Of a stretch of DNA of 64,000 nucleotides, positions 340-25,577 are shown in pieces (position 1 is the first letter of the stretch; each line of letters begins with the position of its first letter). The DNA lies in assembly GCA_022842245.1 (NCBI GenBank), contig JALHPZ010000001.1, forward strand, positions 1-64,000. Direction: 5' to 3'. Made by a program: the position numbers and the translations under genes. The DNA comes from Gemmataceae bacterium (GTDB lineage: Bacteria > Planctomycetota > Planctomycetia > Gemmatales > Gemmataceae). The notes under the pieces are model-generated. The model was given only the letters and a program-made list of their open reading frames with translations. It had not been told where the DNA came from and did no database searches.

Positions 340-342
340 GGT

Positions 343-954
343 TCACTCCTTCGAGGGGGTTGGTTCGATTCCGAGTTCGGCGGCGACGAGCCGCCGGAGG
401 TCGGGCGAGAGCCGGCGGAGCAGGTCCGCGAGCGGGGCTTCGTCCCGGAACAGCCCGAGGTGACGGGCCAGCTTGTCGAGGGCGCCGAGTTTGTCGTGCA
501 TCGTCACTTCCCACTTTTCGATTCGGCCCTGTCCGTCAGGCAGCACCCGGACGGTGGCCTTGAGCGACCGGAGCGACTTCCGCGCTTCCGCCGTCACCTG
601 GCGGGCGGGCTTCAACCGGTGCGGTCCGTCGGCGGCGAAGTCCACCACGTCGCCGATGTCCCCGAACGCGATGGCCGCCAGCTCGCGCACGACGCGGTCC
701 GCGTCCTCCGCGCACCGGGCGCGGAGGCTCGCCTGCGCCGCACGCACTTCGCGGCGGACTGCCGGCACCCGGAGCAGCTTCGACGACTCCACGCACGCCG
801 AGCGGTAGGAGCGGGGGCGGCCGCGGACCATGCGGCCGAACGCCGCGAAGTACGCGCGCACGCCGTTCAGGTCGATGAGGTACTCGTCGACGAACCGCCG
901 GCGACGCGCGGCCGCGTCGGATCGGGATTCGGGAACTGGCGGAGTCTTCGCCAT
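343..954 (-). CDS. phage terminase small subunit homolog (Terminase_2 / P27-like family)
   Basis: 203 aa. Motif RRRRFVDEYLIDLNGVRAYFAAFG matches the conserved F-x-x-EYLIDLNxxxAxxxAG N-terminus of terminase small subunits. Later ELAAIAFGDIGDVVDF resembles the conserved ELAxIAFxDIxD segment. Confidence 0.6.
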   Translation of the reverse strand: MAKTPPVPESRSDAAARRRRFVDEYLIDLNGVRAYFAAFGRMVRGRPRSYRSACVESSKLLRVPAVRREVRAAQASLRARCAEDADRVVRELAAIAFGDIGDVVDFAADGPHRLKPARQVTAEARKSLRSLKATVRVLPDGQGRIEKWEVTMHDKLGALDKLARHLGLFRDEAPLADLLRRLSPDLRRLVAAELGIEPTPSKE

Positions 955-1436
955 GGCGCTCGCACCTTAGGGGTTCTCAGGGAGCCGGTGCAGATGCCCG
1001 CACCCCGGCCGGTCCGGTCGATGGACGTTCACCGGTGGTCGTCTGTTCCTGTCGCGCCTGAATTCGCGGCCCGTGATGGTCGTTTGGCGAGGAAGGCCCC
1101 TGTCGGCCCCGGATTCGCGTTCCGGGCTTCGTCCGGCTTTCCGGGCCATCCGGGGCGGCGATCGCGCGCCATTCGCGGCCGTAGCGCATCACGCGGCCCT
1201 CCGGTGAGTGGCGGGCGCGGCATCGACGAGCGAGAGGATGGCGAGGCGGATGGGTTCGGGCAGAGTGGTCCACGCGGCCACGACGCGGGCGAGGTCAGCA
1301 GGAACTGCACCGGATTCTGCACCGCACGATTTGATAGGTGAGCGTTTTTCGCTGGATTTCAAGGGCAAAACGTCGGGCGGTTCGAATCCCCGCAGGGTCA
1401 CATTGGCACCCCGACCGTGTCCGTCCGGGTGCGACA

Positions 1437-1485
1437 CAAGCCGACGGGAAGCCTTGTTTTCAAGGGTTCCCGTCGGCTTTGTTAT
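1437..1485 (+). terminator. nested stem-loop followed by a T-rich tract inside a ~750 bp noncoding, AT-richer region
   Basis: CGACGGGAA-gccttgttttcaaggg-TTCCCGTCG is a 9-bp stem enclosing a second small hairpin (ccttg tttt caagg), then GCTTTGTTATT. Function unknown (terminator, attenuator or ncRNA element). Confidence 0.25.
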
Positions 1486-1707
1486 TACATGCGGATCTCA
1501 CCCGATCCAAACGGACGCGGTCGATTTTCTACTTGATGGGGACTCAAGAACGGCGAGTGTCCGATTCGCCAACGTTGTCCAAGACATTGACTTGTGAGCC
1601 GCCGGAGCAATTCGATTTTAGGTCCGACACAATATAGAACCGGTACGGAAATCATCGTCCGCGAGTTCCTCTTCCCGATCCACTTGAAGCAATGATACAA
1701 CGGTGCC

Positions 1708-2298
1708 ATGCTTGCACGCATACTCGTTTCGCTGTTAATCTTCGGTATTGTCGCGGTGCCGCTGCTCTACCGCGTGTCCCAGGACAGGCGCTACCGGAAC
1801 CTGCACGTCGTCGAGGAGGGACGGCTCTACCGGAGCGGCCAGCTCACGCCGGAAGGGTTCGAACGGGTCCTTCGCGAGTTGCGCGTCGGGACCGTCGTGA
1901 GCATGCGCGAGACGAAGAACGAGAATCAGGAATATCAGGATGGATTCGAAGAGGAAATCTGCCGCCGGTTGGGGGTGCGCTACGAGCGGTTTGGCTACCT
2001 CGACTGGTCTGCGCCGGACGGCACAATGCCGGCGATGGCGAACATCCGGAAATTTCTACAGCTGTTCGACGACACGGACTCGCCGAAGCCGGTGCTCGTT
2101 CACTGCTTCGCGGGCATCCACCGCACGGGCGTGCACGTGGCGGCGTATCGGGTCGATCAAAACGGCTGGACGAACGCCGAGGCGATAGCGGAACTGCGTT
2201 GGATGGGGACGCGGCGGACGACGTTCGCGGACAATCTGGTGGAGTTCGTGCGCGCCTTGAAGCCTCGCGCGGTGGGCGGCGCGCGGCCGGAGCGGTAG
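1708..2298 (+). CDS. membrane-anchored dual-specificity / tyrosine protein phosphatase (CX5R, Siw14/Y_phosphatase2-like)
   Basis: 196 aa with an N-terminal TM helix. Active-site loop VHCFAGIHRTG (HCx5R+T/G). GRLYRSGQ...VGTVVSMR is typical of the plant/fungal-type DSP family. Paralogous to 3553..4602. Confidence 0.7.
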   Translation: MLARILVSLLIFGIVAVPLLYRVSQDRRYRNLHVVEEGRLYRSGQLTPEGFERVLRELRVGTVVSMRETKNENQEYQDGFEEEICRRLGVRYERFGYLDWSAPDGTMPAMANIRKFLQLFDDTDSPKPVLVHCFAGIHRTGVHVAAYRVDQNGWTNAEAIAELRWMGTRRTTFADNLVEFVRALKPRAVGGARPER

Positions 2299-2313
2299 AA
2301 TGCGGGTGTCGTC

Positions 2314-2398
2314 GCGAGGATGGCGGAATTGGCAGACGCACAAGATTTAGGTTCTTGCGGCCGTAAGGCTGTGGGGGTTCAAGTCCCCCTCCTCGCAA
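2314..2398 (+). tRNA. tRNA-Leu (anticodon TAG), class II with long variable arm
   Basis: Acceptor GCGAGGA/TCCTCGC; D-arm TGGCGGAATTGGCAGACGCA; anticodon stem CAAGA/TCTTG with loop TTTAGGT (anticodon TAG); long variable arm GGCCGTAAGGCTGT; T-arm GGGGGTTCAAGTCCCCC; discriminator A. Confidence 0.85.
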
Positions 2399-2441
2399 TT
2401 CGCCCCCATTCGGTCCTCTTCATCCGCAAGGCGCGTGTCCC

Positions 2442-2762
2442 ATGATCGACGGCTCCGACGATGTCGTGAAGGTGGCGGTCGGTACGCTCGCGGAGATCAA
2501 CGAACAAGCTGGCCGATTACACGCCGATGGCGTCCGTTGCCGGGTGGTCGGCGACGATCTCACGGCAGGTTTGGGTACGATGATTCCCGGATCCGTCGAA
2601 TTGTGGGTCCTGGCTGCGGACGCGGATCGCGCCGCCGCGGTTCTGTCCGGCGAATTCGACGCGCCGGATCGTCCGCCGTTTCCCCATCCGACTTCGGACC
2701 CGAAACCGGACCGCAGCGACGGTCCGCACCATTTTCCGACTCGGCATCGGCCGAGTAACTAA
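2442..2762 (+). CDS. hypothetical protein, DUF2007-like (putative signal-transducing protein fold) N-terminus with a Pro-rich tail
   Basis: 106 aa, starts right after the tRNA. VKVAVGTLAEINEQAGRLHADGVRCRVVGDD resembles DUF2007. Low-complexity C-terminus. Confidence 0.4.
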   Translation: MIDGSDDVVKVAVGTLAEINEQAGRLHADGVRCRVVGDDLTAGLGTMIPGSVELWVLAADADRAAAVLSGEFDAPDRPPFPHPTSDPKPDRSDGPHHFPTRHRPSN

Positions 2763-2837
2763 CTTCTCCAGTCGGGGAAGTCTGGCTCATTTCGCCAGAT
2801 TCCCCAAGCCGATGATACTCGCAAGGATTCCCAATCT

Positions 2838-3512
2838 TTGCGAGCCCCGGCCATGGCGCGCTGGGTATGGTTGCTCATTCCACTCGTCTGCGGCTGTGTT
2901 GCATTCCGCCCGCATGTCGCGCCGGAACCGGACGAGCCGATCGACCACCTAGCCCTCGCCGCGGACGCGCTCGATCGCGGCGACGAACGTACCGCCAGCT
3001 TGCGTTTCGCGGCCCACCTTCATGACTTCCCCGACGATGCCGCCACGCTGTTCCAACTGGCGGAACTGCTCTTCAAACAGGATCGTACCACCGAGGCGTA
3101 TCGCGAGTTCGAAGCGTTCGTGTCGGTCGCCCAACCCGCGACGGGGCCTGTCCGGAAGCTATTGCCACACGCCCATACCCGACTCATGCAGCTCGCGCAG
3201 GAGTCGGACGACGCGGCGGCGGAGCAACTCCACCGCGGCATCGGTCTAGTCGTCCTCGCGATGCAATGGGACGCTGCCCCGGATCGGGCGGACGATGGAT
3301 TGGAGCATCGGACGTTGATGAAAGCCGTTCGAGCCTTGAGGGCTGCGCGGGGCGCACATCCGGCCCGCGCGAATCTCTACCTCGCACTGGCGTACGATCG
3401 ACTGGGGCAACTTTCGGCCGTGCGATCCGCACTGCGGAACGCCGAGGCCGCCAACCCGTTCGCACTGACTCCCTGGGAGCGCGACCGGCTGGCCGCCCTC
3501 GGATCACAATGA
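2838..3512 (+). CDS. hypothetical lipoprotein with TPR-like helical repeats
   Basis: 224 aa. Signal peptide MRAPAMARWVWLLIPLVCGC. Alpha-helical Ala/Leu-rich body. Confidence 0.5.
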   Translation: MRAPAMARWVWLLIPLVCGCVAFRPHVAPEPDEPIDHLALAADALDRGDERTASLRFAAHLHDFPDDAATLFQLAELLFKQDRTTEAYREFEAFVSVAQPATGPVRKLLPHAHTRLMQLAQESDDAAAEQLHRGIGLVVLAMQWDAAPDRADDGLEHRTLMKAVRALRAARGAHPARANLYLALAYDRLGQLSAVRSALRNAEAANPFALTPWERDRLAALGSQ

Positions 3513-3552
3513 CCTTTCCAAGCCGCTCCGAATTTGGCAGACTCCGCCCCTT

Positions 3553-4602
3553 ATGCTACGCGATCTCCTTCGGCAGAAACTGCCCAAGCTCACCCTGCGT
3601 CGCCCACGTGCCCGCTCGGTCGTCCGCCTCGTACTCGTGCTGGCCTTGCTGCCGGTCGGGCTGGAGGCGGCACGCGTGCTCGTCGGGAATAACCGGCACG
3701 AGGTCCTGCCCGGCCGCGTCTATCGCAGCAACCAGCCGTCGCCGGCGGCGCTGCGCGAGTTCCTCGCCTCGCACGAGATCAAGACGGTCATCAACCTGCG
3801 CGGGCATTGTCCCGGCGATCACACGCCGTGGTACAAGGAGGAAATCCGCGCGACCAGCGAGTTGGGCGTCAGCCACGAGGACATCACGTTCAGTGCCAAC
3901 CGACTGCCGGCACCATCGGAATTGAAGCGTCTGGTCGAAGTGCTGGACCGGTCCGAATACCCGATCCTCTTCCACTGCAAGCAAGGGGCGGACCGCACCG
4001 GCCTGACGGCGGCGCTCGTCCTGTTGCTGTACACCGACGCCACGCTCGATCGCGCCCGGCGTCAGCTCTGGCCTCGCTATGGCCATTTCCGCTTCGGCCG
4101 TACAGCCGCGATGGACGAGTTCTACGACCGGTACGAATCCTGGCTCGCCGGCCGCGCCCACGCGCCGGCTCTCGTCCGCGAGTGGATCGCGAACCACTAC
4201 AGCCCCGGCCCCGCCTCGGGTACGCTGCTCGTGCGAGACGGAAAGGACACCTGGCCGGCGATACGTGGAGCATGGACTGCCGTGCCGGTCGTCGCACACA
4301 ACACCTCCGGCGAGGCGTGGGAGTTCCAGCCCGGCCATCATGCCGGCATCCACGTCGAATTCAGTATCTACAACCTCGCCGGCCACAAGGTCCACGCCGG
4401 GATGGCCGGGTTGTTCCGACGAACCGTCAAGCCCGGCGAGTCGATCGAACTGACGCTGGCGGTTCCGCCCATCGATCATCCTGGCGTCTACATCCTGCAC
4501 GCGGACTTGATGGACGGCACCGCCGCCGCCGTGCCGATCCGCCAAACGGGTTTCTACCAGTTCGGCTGCGACCCGCTCATGATGCATCTGGTCGTGAAAT
4601 GA
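3553..4602 (+). CDS. DSP/tyrosine phosphatase domain protein with extra C-terminal domain (paralog of 1708..2298)
   Basis: 349 aa with an N-terminal TM. GRVYRSNQ...IKTVINLRG and the FHCKQGADRTG CX5R loop align with the first phosphatase. Residues 180-349 are an uncharacterised domain. The overlapping minus-strand ORF 3556..4932 is judged a GC artefact. Confidence 0.65.
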   Translation: MLRDLLRQKLPKLTLRRPRARSVVRLVLVLALLPVGLEAARVLVGNNRHEVLPGRVYRSNQPSPAALREFLASHEIKTVINLRGHCPGDHTPWYKEEIRATSELGVSHEDITFSANRLPAPSELKRLVEVLDRSEYPILFHCKQGADRTGLTAALVLLLYTDATLDRARRQLWPRYGHFRFGRTAAMDEFYDRYESWLAGRAHAPALVREWIANHYSPGPASGTLLVRDGKDTWPAIRGAWTAVPVVAHNTSGEAWEFQPGHHAGIHVEFSIYNLAGHKVHAGMAGLFRRTVKPGESIELTLAVPPIDHPGVYILHADLMDGTAAAVPIRQTGFYQFGCDPLMMHLVVK

Positions 4603-4621
4603 CCGGCCCGGAGATTCCCGG

Positions 4622-5593
4622 ATGAATCTGCTCTCCGTCGTGATACCGCTCAAGGACGAGCGCGAAAACGTCAGGCCTCTGTACGAGAAACTCCGCGACG
4701 CCCTCCGCGGCGTGGCGAGGTGGGAAGTCGTTTTCGTGGACGACGGCAGCGGCGACGGCACCTTCGACGTTCTGACGGAACTGGCCGCGGTCGACCGGCG
4801 GGTGAAGGTGGTGCGGCTGCGGCGGAACTTCGGCCAGGCCGCCGCCACGCAGGCTGGATTCGACGTCGCTGCCGGCGACGTCATCGCCACCATGGACGGA
4901 GACGTGCAGAACGACCCCGCCGATCTGCCCATGATGCTTGCGAAGCTCGACGAAGGCTACGACGCCGTGCTCGGTCTGCGCGAGAAGCGGCAGGACAAGT
5001 TCCTCCTCCGGAAGGTGCCGAGCCTCTGCGCGAACTGGCTCATCCGCAAGGTGCTCGGCGTTCCCTTCAAAGACTTCGGCTGCGCCCTGCGCGTGGTGCG
5101 CCGCGAGTTCATCGACGGCCTCTCGCTCTACGGCGAGATGCATCGGTTCATCACGGCCCTGCTTATCCAACAGGGCGCAAAAGTCGCGCAGGTGCCCGTC
5201 CGCCACCATCCGCGCACGGCCGGGCAGTCGAAGTACAACCTCACGCGCACGATCCGCGTCGTCCTCGACCTGATGACCGTGAAGTTCCTTGCGAGCTATC
5301 AGACTCGTCCGATGCACCTCTTCGGGGGCGTCGGGTTGATCTTTCTCGCGCTCGGCCTCGTCAGCCTTCTCGCCAGCATCGTGATGAAGTACACCACCGG
5401 CCCCGGCATGACGGCGAACCCGCTCTTCCTCATCGGAGTGATGGTCGAATTGATCGGCGTGCAGTTCCTGAGCTTGGGCCTCATCGGCGAAGTCATGGCG
5501 CGCATCTATTTCGAGAGCCAGGGCAAACCGCCGTACGTGGTGCGAGACCGGCGGAACATCGACGAATCGGCGGGCATGCGTCGGGCCGCGTGA
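4622..5593 (+). CDS. family 2 glycosyltransferase (polyprenol-phosphate / dolichyl-phosphate sugar transferase, GtrB/ArnC/DPM1-like)
   Basis: 323 aa. VVIPLKDERENV...VVFVDDGSGDGT...ATMDGDVQNDP are classic GT2 DxD/DGS motifs. C-terminal TM helices. Confidence 0.85.
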   Translation: MNLLSVVIPLKDERENVRPLYEKLRDALRGVARWEVVFVDDGSGDGTFDVLTELAAVDRRVKVVRLRRNFGQAAATQAGFDVAAGDVIATMDGDVQNDPADLPMMLAKLDEGYDAVLGLREKRQDKFLLRKVPSLCANWLIRKVLGVPFKDFGCALRVVRREFIDGLSLYGEMHRFITALLIQQGAKVAQVPVRHHPRTAGQSKYNLTRTIRVVLDLMTVKFLASYQTRPMHLFGGVGLIFLALGLVSLLASIVMKYTTGPGMTANPLFLIGVMVELIGVQFLSLGLIGEVMARIYFESQGKPPYVVRDRRNIDESAGMRRAA

Positions 5594-5631
5594 TCGTGTA
5601 GAATAGCGGTTAGCCGACCGGAGGGGCGAGG

Positions 5632-5835
5632 ATGGCAAGCGAATTCGAACCGCGCGAGTACACGCCCGAAGAGCTTCGCAAGATCTATGCGAAATTCGAG
5701 AAGGAATTCACGTGTGAAAAGTTGATCGAGTACATCGAGGACGACGACAAAAAGTTTCCGATTGAGGACGTATTGGCCGAGGCGGAGGAAATCGTCCGTT
5801 CGTATGAACAATCGCCTAGGAAGAATCGGTCATGA
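5632..5835 (+). CDS. small acidic hypothetical protein, putative antitoxin of a TA-like cassette
   Basis: 67 aa. Lower-GC codon usage than the flanks. Stop overlaps the next ATG as ATGA (5832..5835). RBS-like GGAGGGG upstream. Confidence 0.4.
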   Translation: MASEFEPREYTPEELRKIYAKFEKEFTCEKLIEYIEDDDKKFPIEDVLAEAEEIVRSYEQSPRKNRS

Positions 5836-6150
5836 GTGGTGCGAATGACTCGTCGCATCCGCGCTATCGTGTGGTGCTGATTGGTCTCGCCAAGGAAGAA
5901 TTTCTCGCATTGGTCCGCCTTGCGTCCGAGGGGGAAAATCCCAACGATTAATCGACTCGCTCCGAGCCGCCGAAACCATTCTGGAGTCGAATCCGATCGC
6001 GGGTGGTGAACTGCTCTATCGACTGCACAAAATGAAGATGGTCATTTGCCGAATCGTCAGCCCGCCGCTTTACATCGAAAATGGCGTGCATTCCGATCGG
6101 CCCGTCGTCATCATCCGACGTGTGGCTACGCTTTGGCAAGGATTGGACTG
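5832..6150 (+). pseudogene. RelE/ParE-superfamily toxin-like gene interrupted by a -1 frameshift near 5945-5951
   Basis: Frame 0: MSGANDSSHPRYRVVLIGLAKEEFLALVRLASEGENPND*. It continues in another frame as ...LIDSLRAAETILESNPIAGGELLYRLHKMKMVICRIVSPPLYIENGVHSDRPVVIIRRVATLWQGLD*. Together these resemble the ParE layout (N-terminal Y-x-L...A...L helix, then P..G......YR.....V.I.RV). The shift sits at a GGGGAAAATCCCAACGATTAAT low-complexity run. Confidence 0.3.
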
Positions 6151-6187
6151 AACGAAACGGCCGCCCCGTTCGGAGCGGCCGGGAATC

Positions 6188-7287
6188 TTACAGCAAATTG
6201 ACCACGCGGTCGGCCAGGCCCTTCTCGCCCAGCACGACGCTGAGCTTGCCGCCGGCAGCCACGCGTTCCACCACCTCGAGTTCCCGCAGCTTGAGCAGCG
6301 TCGGGTTCTCGGCGAGCAGCTTCGCCGTGTTCGCCTGGTGACGCAGGGCGGCGGCCTCCTCGCGCCGGGTGATGACCGCGGCCTCCGCCGCCGTCCGGGC
6401 TTCGATAACGCGGTTGAGCAGGTCCTTCATCTCGCCGGGCAGGATGATGTCCCGCACGCCGAGCGCGACCAGCTCGAGGCCGACCGTCGCCGCCTTGGCC
6501 CGCGCGATCTCGGCGAGGTCCTTCGCCAGCGCGTCCTTGTCCGCCAGCAGCGCGTCGAGCGTGCGACCCCTACGGCGGCCCGCACGGCGAGCTGCACCTC
6601 GCGGTACAGCGCCTGCTTCGCGTCGTCGGTCACGGTCACGGCCCGAACGGGGTCGGCTACGCGGAACGCACCCACCGCCGTCAGCCGCAGCGTGACGCGG
6701 TCGGCCGTCAGCACCTCCTGGCCCGGCACCTCCAGCGCCTGCTCCCGGCGGTCAACGCGCGCGAGCTTCACCGCGCCGCGGTTCCGCCAGAAGGCGTACC
6801 GGCCCGGCGCCAGCGTCTCGACGTACCGGCCGTCGACGAACAGCACGCCCGCGTGATCCGCCGGCACGTCCTGCACGTCGAGTAGCGCGGCCGCGTTCTT
6901 GCCCGCCAGGATCGCGTCGCGGTCGGCGTGCGCGAAGCGCACGTCCACCAGCTTCACGATCTCCGTGCGGATGCGGCGGAAGCCCGTCCAGAGCGCGTAG
7001 CGACCCGGCGGCAGCACGGCGTCGAACCGGCCGTCGATCCAGACCAGCCCGCGCTCGTCGTCGGCGAGGTCGAGCACAACGGCCTTGCCCTCGAGCGCAC
7101 CGCTCGCGGCGATCAGGTCCAGCTGTTCGTGCGCCAGCCACGGCGCGCGCCGGCTTACGATCTCGATCGTCTCCCGGCCGAGCGGGTTCATCCGCCAGTA
7201 CACGCCCGGGTCGAGCAGGTTCTGGAATGCGCCGTCCCGGAATACGAGGCCGTACTCGAACGGACGAACGGTGATCGTGTGGAACAT
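6188..7287 (-). CDS. SPFH/band-7 (stomatin/prohibitin-like) domain protein with N-terminal triple repeat; frameshift in C4 run at 6567..6570
   Basis: ATG 7287..7285 with RBS GGGAGGA. N-terminal repeats FRDGAFQNLLDPGVYW, WIDGRFDAVLPPGRYALW and FVDGRYVETLAPGRYAFW. SPFH core REQALEVPGQEVLTADRVTLRLTAVGAFRV. The frame breaks after ...REVQLAVRAAVG; the C-terminal part (GRTLDALLADKDALAKDLAEIARAKAATVGLELVALGVRDIILPGEMKDLLNRVIEA...) continues in a -1 frame. Inserting one G into the GGGG run (C-run on plus strand) restores the frame. Confidence 0.7.
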
Positions 7288-18042: not shown

Positions 18043-18396
18043 ATGACCGCGAAGGACGGGGCGAACTGGCAAGCGACGCTGGCCGAGGTGGAGCGATCGA
18101 TCGACGACTGCCTCGCGGCACTGGCGAAGTACGAATCGGCCTTCGCGAAGGTGCTGCACGAGCCGGTCCCGCCGGTGCCCGCGCGGCCGCTGCCCGCGCC
18201 GACCGCCGCCTGGGACGACACGCTGGCCGATGCGGCGCGGCGCACGGATGAAGTCGAGCAACTCCTCGACGAGCAGGAGCGAGTCTGGGGCCGCTGGCGG
18301 CAGGCGCTCGGCCAGTGGCAACGCACTCTCGACGCCCTGCCGCCCGGCACCGTCGGCCGGACACCGCTTACCGCCACGGCTACAACGGCTCCATGA
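18043..18396 (+). CDS. hypothetical protein translationally coupled to ispD
   Basis: 117 aa. RBS GGAGG 7 nt upstream. Stop overlaps the ispD ATG (ATGA). Confidence 0.45.
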   Translation: MTAKDGANWQATLAEVERSIDDCLAALAKYESAFAKVLHEPVPPVPARPLPAPTAAWDDTLADAARRTDEVEQLLDEQERVWGRWRQALGQWQRTLDALPPGTVGRTPLTATATTAP

Positions 18397-19133
18397 GCGA
18401 CTTCGCCGTCATCCTCCCCGCCGCCGGTTCGTCCACCCGGTTCGGCGGACTCGAAAAGAAACCCTTCACGAGCCTCGACGGCCGACCGATCTGGCTCCGC
18501 TCCTGCGAACTCTTCTGGACGCGCCCCGACGTCGCGCGCGTCTACATCGTGATTGCCCCCGAAGACGGCGAGGTCTTCCGCGCCCGCTTCGGGCACCTGC
18601 TGCTGTTCGCGAACGCCGAGATCGTCGAGGGCGGGGCGGAGCGCTTCGAATCGGTGGCGAACGCGCTGGCGCGGGTGCCGGCGGAGGTGCCGTTCGTGGC
18701 GGTGCACGACGCAGTGCGGCCGCTGGTGGCGCCCCGGCAGATCGACGCGGTGTTCGCGAAGGCGCGCGAGACGGGTGCGGCGATGCTCGGCGTGCCGCTG
18801 GCGGACACCCTCAAACGGGTCGAGGGGGATGTCGTGCGCGGCACGGTGCCCCGCGCCGGGCTGTGGCAGGCGCAGACGCCGCAGGTCTTCCGGCGGGACT
18901 GGCTCGTCGAGGCCTACGCGAATCGGGGGCAGCTGTGCACCGCCATCACCGACGATGCGCAGTTGCTGGAGGCGGGCGGCCGCGCCGTCGCGATGGTGCC
19001 GGGGACGGCGGCGAACTTCAAGATCACAACGCAGGACGACCTCGCGCTCGCCGAGGCGGTGGTGCGATCGCGCGCGAAGCCGGTGGAGGAGAAGCCGCCC
19101 GCCCGCGGCTTCGGCGACGAGGCCGAGTGGTGA
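18393..19133 (+). CDS. ispD: 2-C-methyl-D-erythritol 4-phosphate cytidylyltransferase
   Basis: 246 aa. MSDFAVILPAAGSSTRFGG..KPF, ...VAVHDAVRPLV, ...TDDAQLLE motifs. Confidence 0.85.
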   Translation: MSDFAVILPAAGSSTRFGGLEKKPFTSLDGRPIWLRSCELFWTRPDVARVYIVIAPEDGEVFRARFGHLLLFANAEIVEGGAERFESVANALARVPAEVPFVAVHDAVRPLVAPRQIDAVFAKARETGAAMLGVPLADTLKRVEGDVVRGTVPRAGLWQAQTPQVFRRDWLVEAYANRGQLCTAITDDAQLLEAGGRAVAMVPGTAANFKITTQDDLALAEAVVRSRAKPVEEKPPARGFGDEAEW

Positions 19134-19687
19134 AGCGGTGCGGCCGAGTGAGTCCGCCGCCTTCGCGCCACCCCCCGGCGGACCCACTCGCGTTTTCCGG
19201 AATCGCCGTAGTTGGGTAACGACTTACGGCGAATTCCGGCGATTGCGGGACATCATGGAGCGAAGATTTCTCGATCCGCGACGATCGCGACTTCCAGCAG
19301 GACCTGACCTGATGAACAATGCCGAGCCTACGTTTTCGAGTGTGAAGCGGAAGTTTGGCGAAGCGTTCCGGGCCAAGTCCGACACTCCGCTGCCGAACTC
19401 AGTGCCGGCCTAGTTCGTCTGCCACAACTATGTTGTCTTTATCCGAGATGATGTGCGCGATGGGGATCGCGGTCGAATTCGGCGGCAGAACGGGACTGGG
19501 GCCGGAGAGCGAACGTCCGTGGATCGTCCGGTTTCCGGGCAATTGACCAAGGGCCTCTCGACGACGGAACTGCGGATGCTGATAAAGTTGACAAGCAGGG
19601 AGGTATCCTACAAGAAGACCACTTGATTCTGACGACCGAATGGCGCACAATTGAACAGTCATCACCGAAGTGGAGTGAAACCTGATA

Positions 19688-20215
19688 ATGCGTCGGCCAG
19701 GTAAGACGTACCGCGAAGGCGAGAACATCGAGGCGTGCAACCTGCCGAAGCCTCGCGTGGAAGACTACGCTCGTCGCGTCGCCGATCTGTTCGGTTTCAA
19801 AGTAGGCGGCGACATTACCGAAATCGTGGTGATGCTCGGCGGTACGATCCACTACCGCGAACTCGACGAACTGGTCGGCGAGAACGGCTCGATTTTTGTT
19901 CACGGGGCGCTGGACTTCGATATTCTCCTGCCAATGTACACAAGCCCGAATCGCGACAGATTCACTATTGCCCACGAGTTGGGGCACTACTTTCTTCACG
20001 CTGGTCAAGGCAAAGTCCCCGTGGTAGCGTACCGTAGCGGGTCCACTCGTATCGAGTGGGAAGCGAACTGGTTTGCGGCATCGCTGCTCATGCCACTCGA
20101 CAAGTTTGGCGATGCACTTCAAGAGTACGAAGGCGATGTCGAACAAGTGGCATTCAAATTTGGCGTTTCTGTCGAGGCTGCTACAGTGAGAAAAAATGCC
20201 ATCGGAAACCGATGA
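19688..20215 (+). CDS. ImmA/IrrE-family (COG2856, Peptidase_M78-like) zinc metallopeptidase, standalone (no HTH partner detected)
   Basis: 175 aa. HEXXH zinc motif within NRDRFTIAHELGHYFLH (H96/E97/H100). EANWFAASLLMP and VAFKFGVSVEAATVR match conserved ImmA segments. Lies in an AT-richer island. Confidence 0.8.
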   Translation: MRRPGKTYREGENIEACNLPKPRVEDYARRVADLFGFKVGGDITEIVVMLGGTIHYRELDELVGENGSIFVHGALDFDILLPMYTSPNRDRFTIAHELGHYFLHAGQGKVPVVAYRSGSTRIEWEANWFAASLLMPLDKFGDALQEYEGDVEQVAFKFGVSVEAATVRKNAIGNR

Positions 20216-21158
20216 GAAGTGGCGATGGAAACTTCGCCTGTTCGCCAGCGCGGATTTGGTCGGCTCCACCGCCTACAAAGTCAACCAATCACGAAACAAG
20301 ACGCCCGATTGGGCGTCTACCTTCCGCGAATTTTTCAACGACTTCCCGGCCTATCTCCTGAAGCAATACGAGGCACTTCCATCATCGAAGCATGGTAAGT
20401 GCCCGAAGACAGCACTGAAACCTTGGAAATTCCTTGGCGATGAGTGCCTTTTCGAGACCGAACTTGCCACACACCAGGATTCTGCCTTCCATGTCATGGC
20501 TTTTAAGCACGCCATCAAGCGATTCCCCGAACGTTGGAAGGAAAAGGGCACCCCGCTGCTTCTAAAAGGAACGATGTGGATTGCTGGGTTTCCAGTGGGT
20601 AACAGAGAACTGACACTTCGGTCGGATGGCCGGGATATCACCGACTACATTGGACCGTCCATCGACACTGGTTTCCGCATAACAAAATTCTCCTCCGAAC
20701 GAAAGCTCGCCTTGTCCGTTGACCTGTGCCTGTTGCTTGTGGAGGCGCTGGATGTTCTTGAGTGGTACAAGGAGAGTCATCAGATCGCGATTCGGTTTTC
20801 CGGGTGTGAGCCGCTCAAGGGTGTTCTAGACGGCAAGCCTTATCCGGTGATCTATCTGCATCTCTTTGATGGCGTGAAGACGACGGAAGAGGAACTACTG
20901 GAAGTCTCGCACGAGACGAACACGAACAAGCTCAAGAAGTACCTGCGAGAGTACGTCGATGCCCATCTACACCGCCCGTTCATGGCGACTGACACTAACG
21001 AAAAATTTCGGATTGTCCCGGATGGTTTTGAAATAAGACGAGAAGCGATGCGGTCTGATGAAGAAGGTCGAGATTTCGGCAAGCAACAATCTGCCGCAGT
21101 TCCTTCCCCGGAAGGGGCAGTAATAGAACTCGATCCACCCGTCGAAAAATCTAAGTGA
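20196..21158 (+). CDS. class III nucleotidyl cyclase-like protein (adenylate/guanylate cyclase fold) with uncharacterised C-terminal ~120-aa extension
   Basis: 320 aa, overlaps the ImmA gene by 20 nt. LFASADLVGSTAY matches the first metal-Asp motif (F-x-D-I-x-G-F-T). KPWKFLGDECLF matches the K-x-x-GD motif. GTMWIAGFPVGNRELT matches the IGIHTGPVVAGVIG position. DYIGPSIDTGFRITKF matches the YDVWGDTVNTASRMES position. Confidence 0.7.
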   Translation: MPSETDEKWRWKLRLFASADLVGSTAYKVNQSRNKTPDWASTFREFFNDFPAYLLKQYEALPSSKHGKCPKTALKPWKFLGDECLFETELATHQDSAFHVMAFKHAIKRFPERWKEKGTPLLLKGTMWIAGFPVGNRELTLRSDGRDITDYIGPSIDTGFRITKFSSERKLALSVDLCLLLVEALDVLEWYKESHQIAIRFSGCEPLKGVLDGKPYPVIYLHLFDGVKTTEEELLEVSHETNTNKLKKYLREYVDAHLHRPFMATDTNEKFRIVPDGFEIRREAMRSDEEGRDFGKQQSAAVPSPEGAVIELDPPVEKSK

Positions 21159-21460
21159 CTGTTGGCATACCAGAGAGAATTGCCGTTCACTCATCCTGTA
21201 CTTTTATTCCTCCCCATCCGGCACTTTTAATCGCCCGTCTACCACGCGCTCATTCCCGCCCTGCTTTCCGTCTACAAACGTCTAGTTAGCCCCTCCCGCG
21301 GCCGGGTTTCCTTCCGAAATCGCGCCGAAAACGGACTTTTTCCCCTTCGCGCGGTTGCACGCGGATACTGAACACAGGTATAGTATCTCCAGACGAGACC
21401 ACTGGGGAGTTCGGCACACGCCGCGACCACCCCGGCGGACGGCGACACCAGGAGGCGATC

Positions 21461-22331: not shown

Positions 22332-22488
22332 GAATCGGTGGACCGTTTCGGCGGGGAGGGACAGCTCCGCCGAGAGGAGCCCGCGGCGGGACAGGAAGCG
22401 TCCGCCGCGGGTGGTTTCATTTGCCGTAATGCCAATCACGATGCTATGAGACATTGACCGCGATCCGGGATCTCGATATCGCCGTGGA

Positions 22489-22689
22489 ATGAATATCCGG
22501 ATCCCAATTGCATTGGCGCTGACATTCACCTCTTCGGTTTTGGCTTCGGGTTGCCGCTACAAAACCTGCGAAGGCTGGGACCCGCCGGAAAAGCAACCGA
22601 ATGTGTTCGCTGAGCTCGCGGGCAATGAAAACCATCAATGGCAGATCAGTGGGCGACTCGACTTACCTCTGACCAAACAAGACGAGTAG
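22489..22689 (+). CDS. small putative lipoprotein
   Basis: 66 aa. Signal-like N-terminus ending in ASGC. Lower-GC patch. Confidence 0.3.
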   Translation: MNIRIPIALALTFTSSVLASGCRYKTCEGWDPPEKQPNVFAELAGNENHQWQISGRLDLPLTKQDE

Positions 22690-22749
22690 ACATGGCAAAA
22701 GGCTCGACGGTGTAATCCAGATCCAGCAATTCGGCGAAGTGTCCGATCA

Positions 22750-22998
22750 TCACGCTGCAAATTGGTCGATCTCCCGGAGTCGCGCCATGACCTGTTCCGG
22801 GGTATACCATTTCGCGTTGGGATCGTCCCGAATGCGTTCCAGTTCCTCGATCGTCACACCGAATTCGTGAATCCAGCGTTCGCCGGCGCGGGCGGGGAAG
22901 AACTGGCCGACGACCTCCCCGGCGGCGTTCTTGATTTCCACGGCGGAGCCGGCCGTCAGTTGGGCCAGAAGGTTGGCATCGTTGATCGTGATCGACAT
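22750..22998 (-). CDS. hypothetical small protein (82 aa)
   Basis: ATG 22998 with RBS GGGGAGA: MSITINDANLLAQLTAGSAVEIKNAAGEVVGQFF.... A 34-codon ORF follows in another frame. Confidence 0.4.
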   Translation of the reverse strand: MSITINDANLLAQLTAGSAVEIKNAAGEVVGQFFPARAGERWIHEFGVTIEELERIRDDPNAKWYTPEQVMARLREIDQFAA

Positions 22999-23213
22999 GG
23001 CGGTCTCCCCAAAACACTCGTTGTGAATTTTACTGGACCGTGGCCGGAAATTGAACAACATTCCTCGTTCGCCGCACCCATGAGAAACCGGTGAAGACGC
23101 TCCAATGCGTTATTGTCCCGCCGCAAGGGGAACGGTAAACTAGATTGATCGGTACGACGCCGTATCGTTTCCCGCCGCCAACCTGCCTGGCGGGGACGTG
23201 CCGATCCTCGACG

Positions 23214-25577
23214 ATGGAATCCATGAAGCCGATTGCTTGCCTGACACTGTTCGGGTTGGTCGCCGCCGGAGTGTACCTGGCGCCGGGTTCGAAGCCGCGC
23301 GAGACGGCAGCCGCCGAACCGGCGAAGAGCGACCAAAAGGCGTACGAGACGAAGATCGTCCCGTTCCTGAAGACGTACTGCAACAACTGCCACAACGAGA
23401 AGAAGGCCGGCGGGGGGCTGGACCTCGAGTTCTACAAGACCGAGGCGATCGCGAAGAAGGACCGCAAGACCTGGGAGCATATCCAGCAGCTGGTGACCGC
23501 CGGCGAGATGCCGAAGGCGAAGAGCAAGCAGCCGACGGCGGACGAGAAGGCGTTTTTCGTCGGTTGGATCGAGCAGAACCTGACGAAGGTGGACTGCGCC
23601 GGGCCGAAGGACCCCGGCCGCGTGACGATCCGCCGGCTCAACCGCGCGGAGTACAACAACACCATCCGCGACCTCTGCGGCGTCGACTTCAAGCCCGCTG
23701 AGAATTTCCCGTCCGACGACGTCGGCTACGGGTTCGACAACATCGGCGACGTGCTGTCCGTGCAGCCGATCCTGATCGAGAAGTACATGGCCGCGGCCGA
23801 CTCGATCCTCGAGCAGGCGATCGTGCCGCTCGACGGCATCAAGTCCAGCAACCAGATCTACCGCCCGCAGCAGATCCTCACGATCCCGCGCACCGCCAAG
23901 ACCCGCGAGACCGACGCGAGGGGCCGCGAGATCCGCCGCATCGTCTTCACCGAGGAAGGCTCGGCGTTCATCGAGAAGTTCAACTTCCCCGCCGAGGGCG
24001 AGTACATCCTCCGCATCCGTGCGTGGGGCACGAAGGTCGGCGGCGAAGATCCGAAGGCGATCTTCCGGATCGACGGGAAGGACATGAAGACCTTCACGGT
24101 GGACGCGCCGCAGGACAAGCCGAAGACGTTCGAGACGAAGGCGCGCGTGACGGCCGGGGAGAACAAGCGCGTGGCGGTGGCGTTTGCGAACGCCTTCACG
24201 GACAAGGAATCGAAGAAGAGCCGGACGCTGGGCATCGAAACGATCGAAGTGGAGGGGCCGCTTGGCGGGGCGCGGAAGCCGCTGCCGGACGCGATGAAGC
24301 TGCTCATCAAGGTGGTGCCGACGGAGGACGGACAAAAGCGGTCCGCGGCGGAAGCGAGCCTGTCGAACTTCGCGAGCCGGGCATTCCGTCGTCCGGTGAA
24401 GCCGGACGAGATGCAACGTCTGATGAAGCTGTTCGACCTCGCCGACCAGCAAGGCGACAAGTTCGAGCAGGCGATGAAGCTGCCGCTGAAGGCGATCCTC
24501 GTGTCGCCGCACTTCCTCTTCCGCATCGAGGAGGACCCGAAGAACCCGAACGACGCGAAGGCGATCTCGGAATTCGAACTGGCGACGCGGCTGTCGTATT
24601 TCCTCTGGTCGACGATGCCGGACGAGGAATTGTTCCGCCTCGCCGGCGCCGGCGAGTTGCGGAAGCCCGGCGTGCTGCAATCGCAAGTGAAGCGGATGCT
24701 GAAGGACCCGAAGGCGTCGGCCATGACGAAGAACTTCGCCGGGCAATGGCTGATGCTGCGGAACATCCTGACGCTCTCGCCCGACCCGAACACCTTCCGC
24801 ACGTGGGACGAATCGCTGCGCAGCTCGATCATCCGCGAGACGGAGCTGTTCTTCGAGCACATCGTCCAGGAAGACAGGAAGGTCCTCGAATTCCTGGACG
24901 CGAACTACACGTTCCTCAACGACCGGCTGTCGTGGCACTACGGCATTCCGGGCGTGAAGGGGGGCGAGTTCCGCAAGGTGACGCTGCCGGACGCGAAGCG
25001 CGGCGGCCTCGTGACGCAATCGAGCATCCTGCTCGTGACCTCGAACCCGACGCGGACCTCGCCGGTGAAGCGAGGAAAGTGGGTCTACGAGAACATCCTC
25101 GGCCTGACGGCCCCGCCGCCGGCACCGGACGTGCCCGAACTGGAAAAGACCGTGCTCAAGGGCACCCTGCGCCAGCGGATGGAGCAGCACCGGGCGAACC
25201 CCAGCTGCGCCGGATGCCACGAGAAGCTCGACCCGCTCGGATTTGGACTCGAGAACTTCGACGCCATCGGAAAGTGGCGCGAGCTGGACGAAGGCACGAA
25301 GATCGACGCCAGCGGCGTCCTCCCGGACGGCGCAAAATTCAACGGCCCGGCCGAACTCCGCAAAGTGCTGATGGGTAAGGCGGACCTGTTCCGCCGCTGC
25401 CTGTCGGAAAAACTGTTGACCTTCGCCTTGGGGCGTGGTCTAGAGTATTACGACAAATGCGTCCTCGACGACCTCGTGAAAAAGCTGAAAACCGGGGAAG
25501 ACCGCTTCTCCGCGCTGGTATTGGCCATTGTGGAAACCGACGCGTTCCAGAAGCGACGCGGCAAACGGAGCGAATGA
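23214..25577 (+). CDS. PSCyt (cytochrome-c-like CxxCH) + DUF1549/DUF1553 (PSD1) domain protein
   Basis: ~788 aa. Signal peptide. Heme-binding-like CNNCHN. Characteristic Planctomycete family paired with DUF1501. Confidence 0.85.
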   Translation: MESMKPIACLTLFGLVAAGVYLAPGSKPRETAAAEPAKSDQKAYETKIVPFLKTYCNNCHNEKKAGGGLDLEFYKTEAIAKKDRKTWEHIQQLVTAGEMPKAKSKQPTADEKAFFVGWIEQNLTKVDCAGPKDPGRVTIRRLNRAEYNNTIRDLCGVDFKPAENFPSDDVGYGFDNIGDVLSVQPILIEKYMAAADSILEQAIVPLDGIKSSNQIYRPQQILTIPRTAKTRETDARGREIRRIVFTEEGSAFIEKFNFPAEGEYILRIRAWGTKVGGEDPKAIFRIDGKDMKTFTVDAPQDKPKTFETKARVTAGENKRVAVAFANAFTDKESKKSRTLGIETIEVEGPLGGARKPLPDAMKLLIKVVPTEDGQKRSAAEASLSNFASRAFRRPVKPDEMQRLMKLFDLADQQGDKFEQAMKLPLKAILVSPHFLFRIEEDPKNPNDAKAISEFELATRLSYFLWSTMPDEELFRLAGAGELRKPGVLQSQVKRMLKDPKASAMTKNFAGQWLMLRNILTLSPDPNTFRTWDESLRSSIIRETELFFEHIVQEDRKVLEFLDANYTFLNDRLSWHYGIPGVKGGEFRKVTLPDAKRGGLVTQSSILLVTSNPTRTSPVKRGKWVYENILGLTAPPPAPDVPELEKTVLKGTLRQRMEQHRANPSCAGCHEKLDPLGFGLENFDAIGKWRELDEGTKIDASGVLPDGAKFNGPAELRKVLMGKADLFRRCLSEKLLTFALGRGLEYYDKCVLDDLVKKLKTGEDRFSALVLAIVETDAFQKRRGKRSE

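Follow-up and report, generated by a model that had tools for sequence, protein, structure and literature searches.

The locus studied here raises the question of what an ImmA-type zinc peptidase and a nucleotidyl-cyclase-like protein do together in a two-gene cassette that has neither a helix-turn-helix (HTH) repressor nor an effector beside it. We analysed the cassette in its window, that is, the whole 64-kb stretch of DNA under study, and compared it with related loci in other genomes and prophages. Both open reading frames lie on the forward strand, gene 1 at 19688..20215 (175 aa) and gene 2 at 20196..21158 (320 aa), exactly as given in the initial annotation. Together with their spacers, and with nothing else, they make up a low-GC patch (19200..21300, unstranded) in which GC dips to 0.50-0.58, compared with 0.65-0.75 on either side in the composition profile. 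Computed for the island, its flanks and the whole window, GC is ~54% in the patch and ~63-64% in the flanks; the two genes alone have 53.4%, against 63.0% in the 10-kb flanks. The left neighbor is ispD (18315..19133, forward strand; Pfam IspD, 2.8e-58), a native gene of GC 0.70-0.75 that lies outside the module. The GC profile thus bears out the low-GC island after ispD that had been noticed initially, and we share the view that it is foreign: in the most likely reading, which belongs to an overall explanation held with moderate confidence, the patch arrived by horizontal transfer as a self-contained module of two genes.

In the 554-bp spacer between ispD and gene 1 (19134..19687, unstranded), neither a gene nor an RNA family nor a promoter of the sigma-70 type could be recognised. 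None of its open reading frames of at least 20 aa matched any Pfam family at E<=10, in agreement with the initial claim that no HTH gene lies upstream. Rfam returned no riboswitch or other RNA match in the spacers at E<=1, a scan limited to sigma-70 consensus sites found no promoter around the pair, and terminator-like sites around it occurred at chance level and within genes. The spacer sequence is not conserved with that of the closest relative (locus L112) nor with any other locus. One peptide encoded there, ...EPTFSSVKRKFGEAFRAKSDT..., suggested a transposase remnant, a candidate that we rejected: Pfam gave no match, tblastn against plasmids gave nothing meaningful, and no similar sequence was found at other loci. 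The flanking direct repeats once proposed as island boundaries are not above chance; they are absent from the repeat finder output, and 11-13 nt matches comparable to them are common throughout the region. An exact 11-mer at 19173 and 21430 was also discarded as a mark of the island ends, its occurrence being close to chance expectation in GC-rich DNA.

Gene 1 encodes an ImmA-like M78 zinc metallopeptidase (Pfam Peptidase_M78, 1e-21), which upholds the family call made from its motifs. The protein is made up of the peptidase domain plus a short helical terminus and has neither a GAF nor an HTH domain. In the translation, the HEXXH zinc-binding and catalytic motif (H96, E97, H100) is encoded at 19973..19987 and the third zinc ligand, E125, at 20060-20062, both on the forward strand; the corresponding set in CapP comprises the ligands H97, H101 and E128 plus E98 (bioRxiv 10.64898/2026.05.16.725639). 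No cysteine switch was found in gene 1. HExxH is kept in 55 of 57 partner peptidases, and so is E125 (55/57). In the two with a degenerate HEXXH the pairing with the cyclase is retained, suggesting that cleavage may not always be required. PADLOC matched gene 1 to capP (4.9e-27, model positions 4-151 of 242) and to RmrA (1.6e-14), in both cases over the peptidase part only, and PHROG matched it to a metallo-protease (2.4e-19). Its nearest solved structure is CapP (7t5t, E 1e-8), aligned over CapP residues 84-177 of 291.

The two genes overlap by 20 nt (20196..20215, forward strand), as had been reported: gene 1 ends in ...AAC CGA TGA, with its stop codon at 20213-20215, and the ATG of gene 2 is at 20196. 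An overlap of this kind would fit translational coupling within an operon. The junction is equally tight in related loci (-65 to +80 nt), and in L112 it is likewise an overlap of 20 nt.

Gene 2 belongs to an unannotated family. Although the initial annotation had called it a cyclase and proposed the Pfam Guanylate_cyc profile as a check, this profile detected neither gene 2 nor 56 of its relatives, even at E<=10. An hhalign comparison with an alignment of 40 canonical cyclases was non-significant (E 0.24), as was that with one canonical cyclase; a PDB profile search with gene 2 returned nothing, and no PADLOC model, PycC included, matched it at E<=1. We nevertheless judge the cyclase call to be right, on the basis of fold and not of Pfam. 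The structural model contains the fold of a cyclase-homology domain, with a beta-alpha-beta-beta-alpha-beta core and a dimerisation arm, and the order of its secondary-structure elements delimits the predicted domain to about residues 10-222 (20223..20861, forward strand). Gene 2 is accordingly assigned, by predicted fold, to the class III nucleotidyl cyclases.

As there is no sequence-profile link to canonical cyclases, the roles proposed for individual residues follow from topology and from the register of established class III motifs. In a local hhalign register, within an overall alignment that is non-significant, DYIGPSIDTGFR pairs with DIWGDAVNTASR. The putative active-site codons, all on the forward strand, are those of D20 (20253-20255), K78 (20427-20429), D82 (20439-20441), D150 (20643-20645), D157 (20664-20666) and R161 (20676-20678), among which D20, D82, K78, D150 and R161 fall at the positions expected for class III motifs. 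A class III active site comprises two metal-binding Asp, a pair that specifies the substrate, and an Asn and an Arg for the transition state. The motifs that had been singled out in gene 2 at first are real and correspond to invariant positions of the family. D20, K78, D82, E83, D157 and R161 do not vary in 107 relatives, position 150 is Asp in 104 and Glu in 3 of them, and K124 is kept in 106. The Lys78/Asp150 specificity pair appears to be of the adenylyl cyclase type, which would make ATP the likeliest substrate. Where canonical cyclases have an Asn that contacts ribose, this family invariably has Asp (D157), so its chemistry may differ.

Beyond the cyclase domain, which ends at about residue 222, the protein continues for ~100 aa, somewhat less than the ~120-aa extension first described. 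Some 70 aa of these are confidently modelled helices and the remaining ~30 aa form a tail. The helical part (residues 223-291; 20862..21068, forward strand) matched no known family; it was modelled with a pLDDT of 94-97, with helices at 243-257 and 278-291, and carries a semi-conserved R-P-F motif around residue 261, P261 being present in 76 of 107 relatives. The tail (residues 292-320; 21069..21155, forward strand) is acidic and proline-rich, and in the model its residues 301-320 have no secondary structure (pLDDT 81-86). The cyclase tail has a median length of 41 aa in proteins accompanied by a peptidase (n=86) compared with 14 aa in those without one (n=21; Mann-Whitney 1e-8), the latter coming mostly from one clade. 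The peptidase may use this region as a handle or as a site of cleavage. The suggestion that the extension is an output domain found no support, given that it matches no family and is shorter in peptidase-less relatives.

The survey of homologue neighborhoods, advised at the outset, revealed that the co-occurrence of peptidase and cyclase is conserved. The peptidase gene directly precedes the cyclase gene, in the same orientation, at 62 of 80 loci drawn from the genomes of at least 10 phyla, at 27 of 28 loci of prophages or viruses, and in all nine contexts of a subfamily whose cyclase is fused to NUDIX; these counts are lower bounds, neighbors having been called by naive ORF finding, and the surveyed loci are not phylogenetically independent. 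Identity matrices of the two proteins are correlated (Mantel r = 0.65, with 0 of 2000 permutations as high), indicating co-inheritance. No conserved third gene emerged from all-against-all neighbor clustering, nor from Pfam scans that covered the closest gene on either side of the pair and the small ORFs ahead of it. What is conserved in this large family, which had no annotation before, is the two-gene core; its cyclase has ~2,200 representatives at 50% identity. One clade, in the Caulobacterales, has the cyclase without the peptidase, at a site in the chromosome that is conserved and close to pyrE, spoT and rpoZ, which indicates that the enzyme can function without its partner. In the literature searched, whose scope was that of papers open without subscription, the pairing is undescribed, and it is absent from Makarova 2009, the NetFlax paper and its supplements, a 2026 domain-centric defence screen and the 2026 Pucsar survey.

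The pair is mobile and carried by prophages. Its GC is below that of its flanks in 69 of 72 loci (mean 9 points lower, p = 6e-13), and its neighbors are heterogeneous among loci. The closest relative, L112 (60% identity), adjoins phage terminase genes, and its nucleotide similarity to the window is limited to the two coding sequences; the best genomic relative from the same phylum is only 47% identical. In the Leptospira phage LE1, the pair corresponds to gp81/gp80 and lies in the immunity region. Many other loci are flanked by housekeeping genes and have no further genes of mobile elements.

As in the window, an HTH partner is generally missing from related loci: about 4 of the 70 genes nearest upstream encode an HTH domain, as do no more than a handful of the 150 small ORFs upstream. 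At some loci the nearest upstream gene encodes a CI or S24 repressor. The LE1 pair is ~500 nt from a CI repressor gene, in what is annotated as the immunity region, and L112 has an XRE gene ~1 kb upstream. At locus L106, an XRE (HTH-family) repressor gene stands directly ahead of the operon and a separate ImmA adjoins the integrase, indicating that the peptidase of the pair is not the prophage's own induction protease.

The link of this core to Pycsar is real and comes from relatives with PycTM next door. The same core lies beside a bona fide PycTM effector in Bacillota prophages and in two proteobacterial loci. PycTM adjoins it at L106, L109, L115/116, L117, L120 and L121, with scores of 7e-36 for the PADLOC 2TM effector, 9e-26 for PycTM and 42.9 bits for Pfam PycTM. 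In many PycTM-bearing loci the cyclase is fused to NUDIX; PycTM-like genes also adjoin the pair in the non-NUDIX loci L021 and L074. Bacillus prophages contain a native three-gene version, PycTM - peptidase - cyclase-NUDIX. At other loci, the neighbors are those of defence islands, namely SMODS, Eco57I/MmeI, Mrr, TIR_2 and DruA. The arrangement had been described initially as distinct but related to cyclic-nucleotide defence, and the PycTM neighbors support this view. No PycTM or PycTIR effector adjoins the window's pair, as is also the case in most two-gene loci, and no PycTM-like ORF was found in the whole window. The early statement that there is no effector consequently holds beside the pair and, across the window, for PycTM-type proteins, the only ones covered by the scan.

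Based on these data, we find it moderately probable that the peptidase-cyclase module is a mobile nucleotide-signalling system of phage defence, present here in a minimal, effector-less form; the family probably represents a branch of cyclic-nucleotide phage defence that has not been described before. Its most likely function would be defence of the abortive-infection type through a nucleotide second messenger. The cyclase would be the signal generator, using most likely ATP, and the peptidase its dedicated post-translational regulator. With no repressor on hand to be cleaved, the peptidase probably has the cyclase itself as its partner or substrate, plausibly through the C-terminal region of the latter. 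Direct action of the peptidase on the cyclase, by cleavage or binding, is the most economical proposal, and the direction of control that it implies is likewise conjectural. In related versions, the adjacent membrane effector PycTM would read the signal. In the window, the absence of an effector leaves the signalling role with no visible receiver, and the output would have to rely on a receptor whose gene lies elsewhere or on nucleotide turnover by the cyclase. We infer the enzymatic activity, the substrate and the defence phenotype. A more daring version, which we put forward only tentatively, is that the M78 peptidase gates the cyclase by proteolysis or binding at its C-terminus and that the two-gene form is a complete minimal immune or addiction module, its output being either the nucleotide turnover of the cyclase or a surge of some common messenger, for instance cAMP.

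The module differs from the systems that it resembles. In contrast to Pycsar, its cyclases are missed by Pfam Guanylate_cyc and by every PADLOC model, they appear to combine the Lys/Asp specificity pair of adenylyl cyclases with an Asp in place of the conserved Asn, and the adjacent effector is absent from the window and from most two-gene loci. Moreover, the M78 peptidase is an obligate partner here, and the August 2026 survey of antiphage cNMP cyclases has no entry for such an association. The alternative first offered, a minimal or degenerate Pycsar module regulated by CapP, is unsupported in that form, since the core recurs in most of the loci surveyed, its catalytic residues are invariant, and the peptidase has neither the GAF domain of CapP nor a CapH beside it. 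Gene 1 is most similar to CapP and has the same HEXXH...E zinc site, and in size and domain content it resembles ImmA (175 aa compared with ~170 aa). Unlike CapP (291 aa), it has no C-terminal GAF domain and therefore no groove between peptidase and GAF, where CapP and IrrE bind ssDNA. In CapP/CapH and IrrE/DdrO the repressor substrate is an adjacent HTH protein, and ImmA lies beside an ImmR-type repressor, whereas no repressor adjoins gene 1 or most of its relatives and its constant neighbor is an enzyme. A possible mode of action, as distinct from membership, is offered by type II CBASS, in which Cap2 and Cap3 act on the C-terminus of the CD-NTase (PMC11153139). This is a precedent for a zinc metallopeptidase of a defence operon acting directly on a signalling nucleotidyltransferase by way of its C-terminal tail. 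Pycsar-like-4 is similar in this respect, its cyclases being associated with E2/JAB (2026 survey). Nevertheless, Cap3 is a JAB/JAMM and not an M78 peptidase and works with an E1/E2-like ligase, absent here, and CD-NTases have a Pol-beta fold, as opposed to the class III cyclase fold predicted for gene 2.

Among the other explanations, the least unlikely, though one that we do not favor, is an addiction module akin to Rosmerta, in which a cyclase-fold toxin would be neutralised by an M78 antitoxin and no second-messenger receiver would be involved. Toxicity could arise from ATP consumption or from a toxic nucleotide, and neutralisation from binding or continuous cleavage. Rosmerta is also a two-gene, mobile and phage-associated system that joins an ImmA-type peptidase domain to a variable partner, and ImmA-domain proteins are confirmed antitoxins of many unrelated toxins (PMC10440598). 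The tight coupling of the pair with the putative antitoxin first, its patchy, AT-rich and mobile distribution, the match of gene 1 to the peptidase part of RmrA, the two peptidases that remain paired without HEXXH and the missing effector at most loci would all suit such a role. However, RmrA (~370-400 aa) has the N-terminal HTH usual for autoregulation of this type, while gene 1 lacks it and covers only positions ~203-284 of the model, and the cyclase-fold partner is outside the PADLOC RmrT models. PycTM is not a feature of Rosmerta, and its adjacency in several clades is hard to explain unless the cyclase product signals; neither would an unguarded toxin be expected to persist, as the peptidase-less cyclases stably do in Caulobacterales. 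The same PycTM association is left unexplained if the pair is a regulator of mobile elements, whose M78 peptidase cleaves a repressor of the ImmR/CI type from another site of the prophage or island, under the control of a cyclase-fold sensor of some cue, the window's copy being a stranded remnant of such an element. ImmA/ImmR, IrrE/DdrO and CapP/CapH do act by repressor cleavage, and the repressor genes near the pair in LE1, L112 and L106 and among the nearest upstream genes of some other loci would accord with it. Yet HTH neighbors are exceptional, many loci sit amid housekeeping genes devoid of other mobile-element genes, and L106 has its own ImmA beside the integrase, all of which makes this regulator improbable.

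Slightly more doubtful is a Pycsar-like order of events, in which the cyclase senses infection and its nucleotide activates the M78 peptidase as the effector, degrading cellular or phage proteins. Nucleotide-activated proteases do exist in other defence systems, as in the cases of the Lon-SAVED protein CalpL and SAVED-CHAT (type III CRISPR and CBASS), and in the two-gene loci no conserved protein other than the peptidase accompanies the cyclase. Nevertheless, gene 1 is a bare peptidase domain of 175 aa in which no nucleotide-binding module is recognisable, catalytic degeneration is seen in a few peptidases, and the relatives bearing PycTM keep the peptidase, so that it is not simply interchangeable with an effector. 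Finally, we consider it very improbable that the pair is an ordinary housekeeping signalling unit or a decaying, non-functional insertion. The solo homologue of Caulobacterales, at its fixed site, indicates that domestication is possible, and around the window's pair neither promoter nor terminator could be recognised, but the promoter scan covered sigma-70 consensus sites only. Against this reading, the GC of the pair is 10 points under that of its flanks, its same-phylum relatives are distant and the closest relative overall is phage-borne, and both reading frames are intact, with all catalytic residues present.

If the preferred explanation, a mobile nucleotide-signalling defence module, is true, a large and broad branch, with its many prophage carriers, would be added to cyclic-nucleotide antiviral signalling, one overlooked by profile-based tools and by the latest surveys. 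Peptidases of the ImmA/IrrE/CapP type would gain a role beyond the cutting of HTH repressors, that is, the control of an enzyme, and direct gating would represent a post-translational switch new to bacterial nucleotide immune signalling. Whether a signal generator can work with no dedicated receiver is a question prompted by the effector-less form of the window. The three-gene version of Bacillus prophages provides a tractable system for studying how protease, cyclase and membrane effector are wired together, and two families now listed as 'hypothetical protein' would acquire a testable function.

Gene 1 (19688..20215, 175 aa) and gene 2 (20196..21158, 320 aa) are co-directional on the forward strand, where the initial annotation had read them. 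The TGA stop of gene 1 lies at 20213-20215 and the ATG of gene 2, preceded by a purine-rich stretch, at 20196, and the two therefore overlap by 20 nt. The lower-GC patch reported after ispD (18315..19133; Pfam IspD, 2.8e-58) was recovered in the composition profile, with GC of 0.50-0.58 across ~19200-21300 against 0.65-0.75 on both sides (pair 53.4%, 10-kb flanks 63.0%, whole window 64.3%). The direct repeats proposed as island borders are no better than chance. Rightward, 21461 is the start of the next gene that has a good AGGAGG ribosome site. Directly after the ispD stop we found a hairpin at 19145-19190 (15-nt arms, 93% complementary, 16-nt loop), followed by a second at 19197-19248 (17-nt arms, 82% complementary); the two may serve as a terminator or insulator separating ispD from the cassette. 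A second low-GC patch (22350-23250, GC 0.55-0.59), about 1 kb 3' of the cassette, carries two small ORFs, 22489-22689 (+), with the lipoprotein-like signal MNIRIPIALALTFTSSVLASGC, and 22750-23061 (-), of 103 aa and with no match in a PHROG search.

The earlier reading that the pair has neither an HTH gene upstream nor an effector beside it was upheld. In the 554-bp spacer 5' of gene 1, no ORF matched Pfam at E<=10, an Rfam search gave no match, a scan for sigma-70-type promoters found none, and there was no similarity to any of the other loci compared. The whole 64-kb window contains no ORF resembling PycTM, the Pycsar membrane effector, and no second copy of the peptidase or cyclase family.

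The product of gene 1 is a zinc peptidase of the M78 family (Pfam Peptidase_M78, 1e-21; PHROG 'metallo-protease', 2.4e-19) with H96, E97, H100 and E125 present and no cysteine switch, which bears out its assignment to the ImmA/COG2856 type. The nearest solved structure is CapP (7t5t, E 1e-8), aligned over its residues 84-177 of 291. In CapP a peptidase domain (1-141) is followed by an HTH-like domain (142-182) and a GAF domain (182-288), and ssDNA is sensed in the groove between peptidase and GAF (Calloji et al., bioRxiv 10.64898/2026.05.16.725639). Gene 1 ends short of the GAF domain, so a groove of the CapP type is impossible. CapP is nearest to gene 1 among known systems, but gene 1 lacks both its GAF domain and CapH; by size and content ImmA is the nearer of the two, being similar in size, but with ImmR absent here. 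The HEXXH motif is degenerate in 2 of 57 partner peptidases. One, at L078 (a locus of a relative; 5290-5931), has IAQMLGH in place of HELGH, so its zinc site is lost, and it is still paired with an intact cyclase; the other shows H96Q/E97A-type changes.

Gene 2 is highly divergent. PADLOC recovered only half of the pair, matching gene 1 to capP (4.9e-27), and gene 2 matched no Pfam, NCBIfam or PADLOC model; its sole library match was phrog_18024 ('unknown function', 1.2e-32). We found 132 relatives among 5.8 billion proteins, all 'hypothetical' and without a Pfam domain, and searching 1.84 billion cluster representatives with a profile gave 2,235 matches at E<=1e-3, of which 1,996 at E<=1e-10. 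The family is sharply bounded, without leakage into canonical cyclases. The proposed class III cyclase identity stands for the fold: the AlphaFold2 model built from 56 relatives (pLDDT 93, pTM 0.89) matched CyaB in Foldseek (E 1e-9, probability 1.00, target TM 0.73). It does not extend to the sequence models, since 0/56 family members matched Guanylate_cyc at E<=10 and hhalign against 40 canonical cyclases was non-significant (E 0.24).

Class III cyclases carry two metal-binding aspartates, a transition-state arginine and a conserved asparagine, and in adenylyl cyclases a Lys/Asp pair confers adenine specificity. In gene 2, D20 (SADLVGST) and D82 (WKFLGDE) would be the metal-binding aspartates, K78 and D150 a putative adenylyl-cyclase-like adenine pair and R161 the likely transition-state arginine, with D157 probably in the place of the canonical asparagine. 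These roles come from the top local hhalign register, which aligns DYIGPSIDTGFR with canonical DIWGDAVNTASR within an overall non-significant alignment, together with secondary-structure order and established motifs rather than residue-level superposition. Across 107 relatives from genomic loci there is no variation at D20, K78, D82, E83, D157 and R161, position 150 is Asp in 104 and Glu in three, and K124 is kept in 106; such conservation implies strong selection on the site. The predicted Asn-to-Asp change is a signature of the family. Past the cyclase domain, which ends at about residue 222 (LKGV...YP), the C-terminal extension estimated at ~120 aa proved to be ~70 confidently modelled helical residues with no family assignment, followed by an acidic, proline-rich tail of ~30. 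Some family members end differently: the relative P0061 weakly matches a Tudor domain of the PcrA/UvrD type (CarD/TRCF RID-like; residues 374-412; Pfam 19.5 bits, under the 23.9 cut-off), and two Sphingomonas cyclases (L020, L039) have weak C-terminal SAP matches. Both domain types bind RNA polymerase or DNA.

The two genes form a conserved unit, as the suggested survey of homologue neighbourhoods showed. In GTDB, with one genome per species, relatives occurred in 220 stretches; among the best 80 of these, an M78 peptidase of the same subfamily lies directly upstream on the same strand in 62, with gaps of -65 to +80 nt. Genes were called as naive longest ORFs, and therefore neighbour counts are lower bounds; the loci are phylogenetically related, so the counts are not independent events. 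The hosts of these best 80 include Planctomycetota, Spirochaetota, Armatimonadota, Verrucomicrobiota, Acidobacteriota, Myxococcota, Lentisphaerota, Campylobacterota and Alpha-, Beta- and Gammaproteobacteria; further searches added Bacillota, Desulfobacterota, Fibrobacterota and one actinobacterial plasmid. In IMG/VR the pair is present in 27/28 loci, chiefly prophages of sequenced isolates. The identity matrices of the two proteins are correlated (Mantel r 0.65, reached by 0/2000 permutations), indicating that the genes travel together. All-against-all clustering of neighbouring ORFs returned peptidase and cyclase as the only conserved families, and neither clustering nor scans of the nearest neighbours found a third conserved gene; those neighbours range from GroEL, UvrA, UvrB, GyrB and ribonucleotide reductase to transposases, integrase, PIN, HicB, MmeI/Eco57I and DruA. 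At L016 (Leptonemataceae), a 1,732-aa protein (39-5234) with a C-terminal canonical Guanylate_cyc domain, the canonical cyclase used in our profile comparison, lies directly upstream of the module, probably by coincidence.

The family is mobile and carried by prophages. GC of the pair is lower than that of its surroundings in 69/72 loci (mean 9 points, p = 6e-13). The relative closest to gene 2 (60% identity) is on a metagenomic phage contig, where a peptidase of 175 aa and the cyclase share a 20-nt overlap, as in the window, and genes for the small and large terminase follow. Nucleotide similarity to the window begins 20 nt into gene 1 and stops within gene 2, and being restricted to the two coding sequences it indicates that the mobile unit is just these two genes. 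In Leptospira phage LE1 (NC_048892.1, 71825-73540), the 'hypothetical' gp80 of the annotated immunity region is the cyclase-like protein, and gp81 (175 aa; 'transcriptional regulator / immunity region protein') is, by position and length, presumably the M78 peptidase. On Leptospira plasmids, RefSeq labels the two proteins 'ImmA/IrrE family metallo-endopeptidase' and 'hypothetical protein'.

Relatives of the module are repeatedly and independently associated with the cyclic-nucleotide-gated membrane effector PycTM. Pycsar/CBASS 2TM effectors were found by PADLOC among 132 immediate neighbours. Two Bacillota prophages (L106, L109) have an operon that reads PycTM, M78 peptidase, cyclase; the first gene matches PADLOC '2TM effector' (7e-36) and PycTM (9e-26) and Pfam PycTM at 42.9 bits (cut-off 27.2), and the cyclase has a C-terminal NUDIX domain, whose NUDIX box appears degenerate in both. 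At least 277 proteins belong to this NUDIX-fused subfamily at E<=1e-10, and their annotations go no further than 'NUDIX domain-containing protein' or 'hypothetical protein'. The peptidase is directly upstream in 9/9 contexts, and PycTM is adjacent in all six from Bacillota (Geobacillus, L109, B. subtilis, Brevibacillus, B. thuringiensis, Lysinibacillus), as the operon's first gene or convergent just downstream; the three-gene module spans L106:6827-9392, L109:6766-9314, L115:2922-5416, L121:2418-4916, L117:3463-5945 and L120:2962-5493. The other three contexts have no PycTM and lie near defence genes or a helicase (TIR_2, Mrr, a HigBA-like pair, SMODS, Eco57I/MmeI enzymes, UvrD-like helicase). 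Two proteobacterial loci of the non-NUDIX type, from Brevundimonas (L021; Pfam PycTM 31.4 bits) and Sphingomonas (L074; 32% identity to the Lysinibacillus PycTM, E 6e-19), have a PycTM-like gene tail-to-tail with the cyclase.

Some cyclases lack the peptidase. In Phenylobacterium and other Caulobacterales (L041, L043-L047, L049, L055, L058, L062, L063, L065, L069, L070, L073, L079; ~6001-6960 in most), a solitary cyclase-like gene is kept at a chromosomal position that is conserved among them, near pyrE, pdxJ/acpS, rpoZ and spoT. These proteins have every catalytic residue intact and a short C-terminus, and may be a domesticated version. Cyclase tails have a median of 41 residues with the peptidase against 14 without (p = 1e-8), a comparison resting on very few independent events, since most proteins without the peptidase belong to a single Caulobacterales clade. 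In a Pirellulaceae MAG (L002:3387-4994, -), the cyclase-like gene nearest the paired type has no peptidase; a 535-aa ORF a few hundred nt upstream, a candidate insertion-sequence transposase, points to secondary loss.

Among known systems, Pycsar would be closest to the module in working mode, but the window pair is not recognized by PycC models and has no adjacent effector. A minimal or degenerate CapP-regulated Pycsar module is not supported in that form, since a large family conserves just this two-gene core and the peptidase has neither GAF nor CapH; the link to Pycsar holds insofar as PycTM lies beside the core of relatives. A survey of antiphage cNMP cyclases from August 2026 covers Pycsar-1, -2, -3, Pycsar-like-4 and Pucsar; the associations it gives are TIR, 3TM, E2/JAB, WYL and STAND, with neither M78 nor NUDIX among them. 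Its JAB association for Pycsar-like-4 cyclases and the type II CBASS metallopeptidase Cap3, acting on the tail of the immune nucleotidyltransferase (PMC11153139), are mechanistic precedents, but peptidase and enzyme folds differ from those of the module. Makarova 2009, the NetFlax paper with its supplements and a domain-centric defence screen of 2026 do not mention the pairing, and keyword searches were negative too; in the freely accessible literature searched, family and pairing are undescribed.

A plain toxin-antitoxin module is rather unlikely; gene 1 matches the Rosmerta antitoxin RmrA (PADLOC, 1.6e-14), in its peptidase half only. We give still less credit to a mobile-element accessory for repressor cleavage. 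In LE1 some 500 nt separate gp81/gp80 from gp79, which encodes the CI repressor; HTH domains occur in ~4/70 nearest upstream genes and in just a handful of the 150 small ORFs lying no more than 450 nt upstream. L106 has a separate ImmA beside its integrase, plus an XRE repressor, and therefore the peptidase of its trio is not simply the prophage induction protease. The remaining alternatives are more doubtful yet.

We lean towards a nucleotide-signalling module of defence type that is regulated by its peptidase. Its elements are a predicted cyclase fold, in which the nucleotide-site signature is conserved, and an ImmA-like peptidase as co-inherited partner, without a repressor partner. The cyclase would make a nucleotide messenger, probably from ATP, and the peptidase may act on the cyclase itself, because no HTH substrate is available; the longer tails beside the peptidase point weakly to the cyclase C-terminal region. 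The peptidase might be an activator, cutting off an inhibitory segment upon infection, or a safety catch holding the cyclase off, and the two degenerate HEXXH motifs hint that binding may sometimes be enough. In the effector-less form of the window, the output would come from a receptor encoded elsewhere or from the enzyme's own nucleotide turnover.
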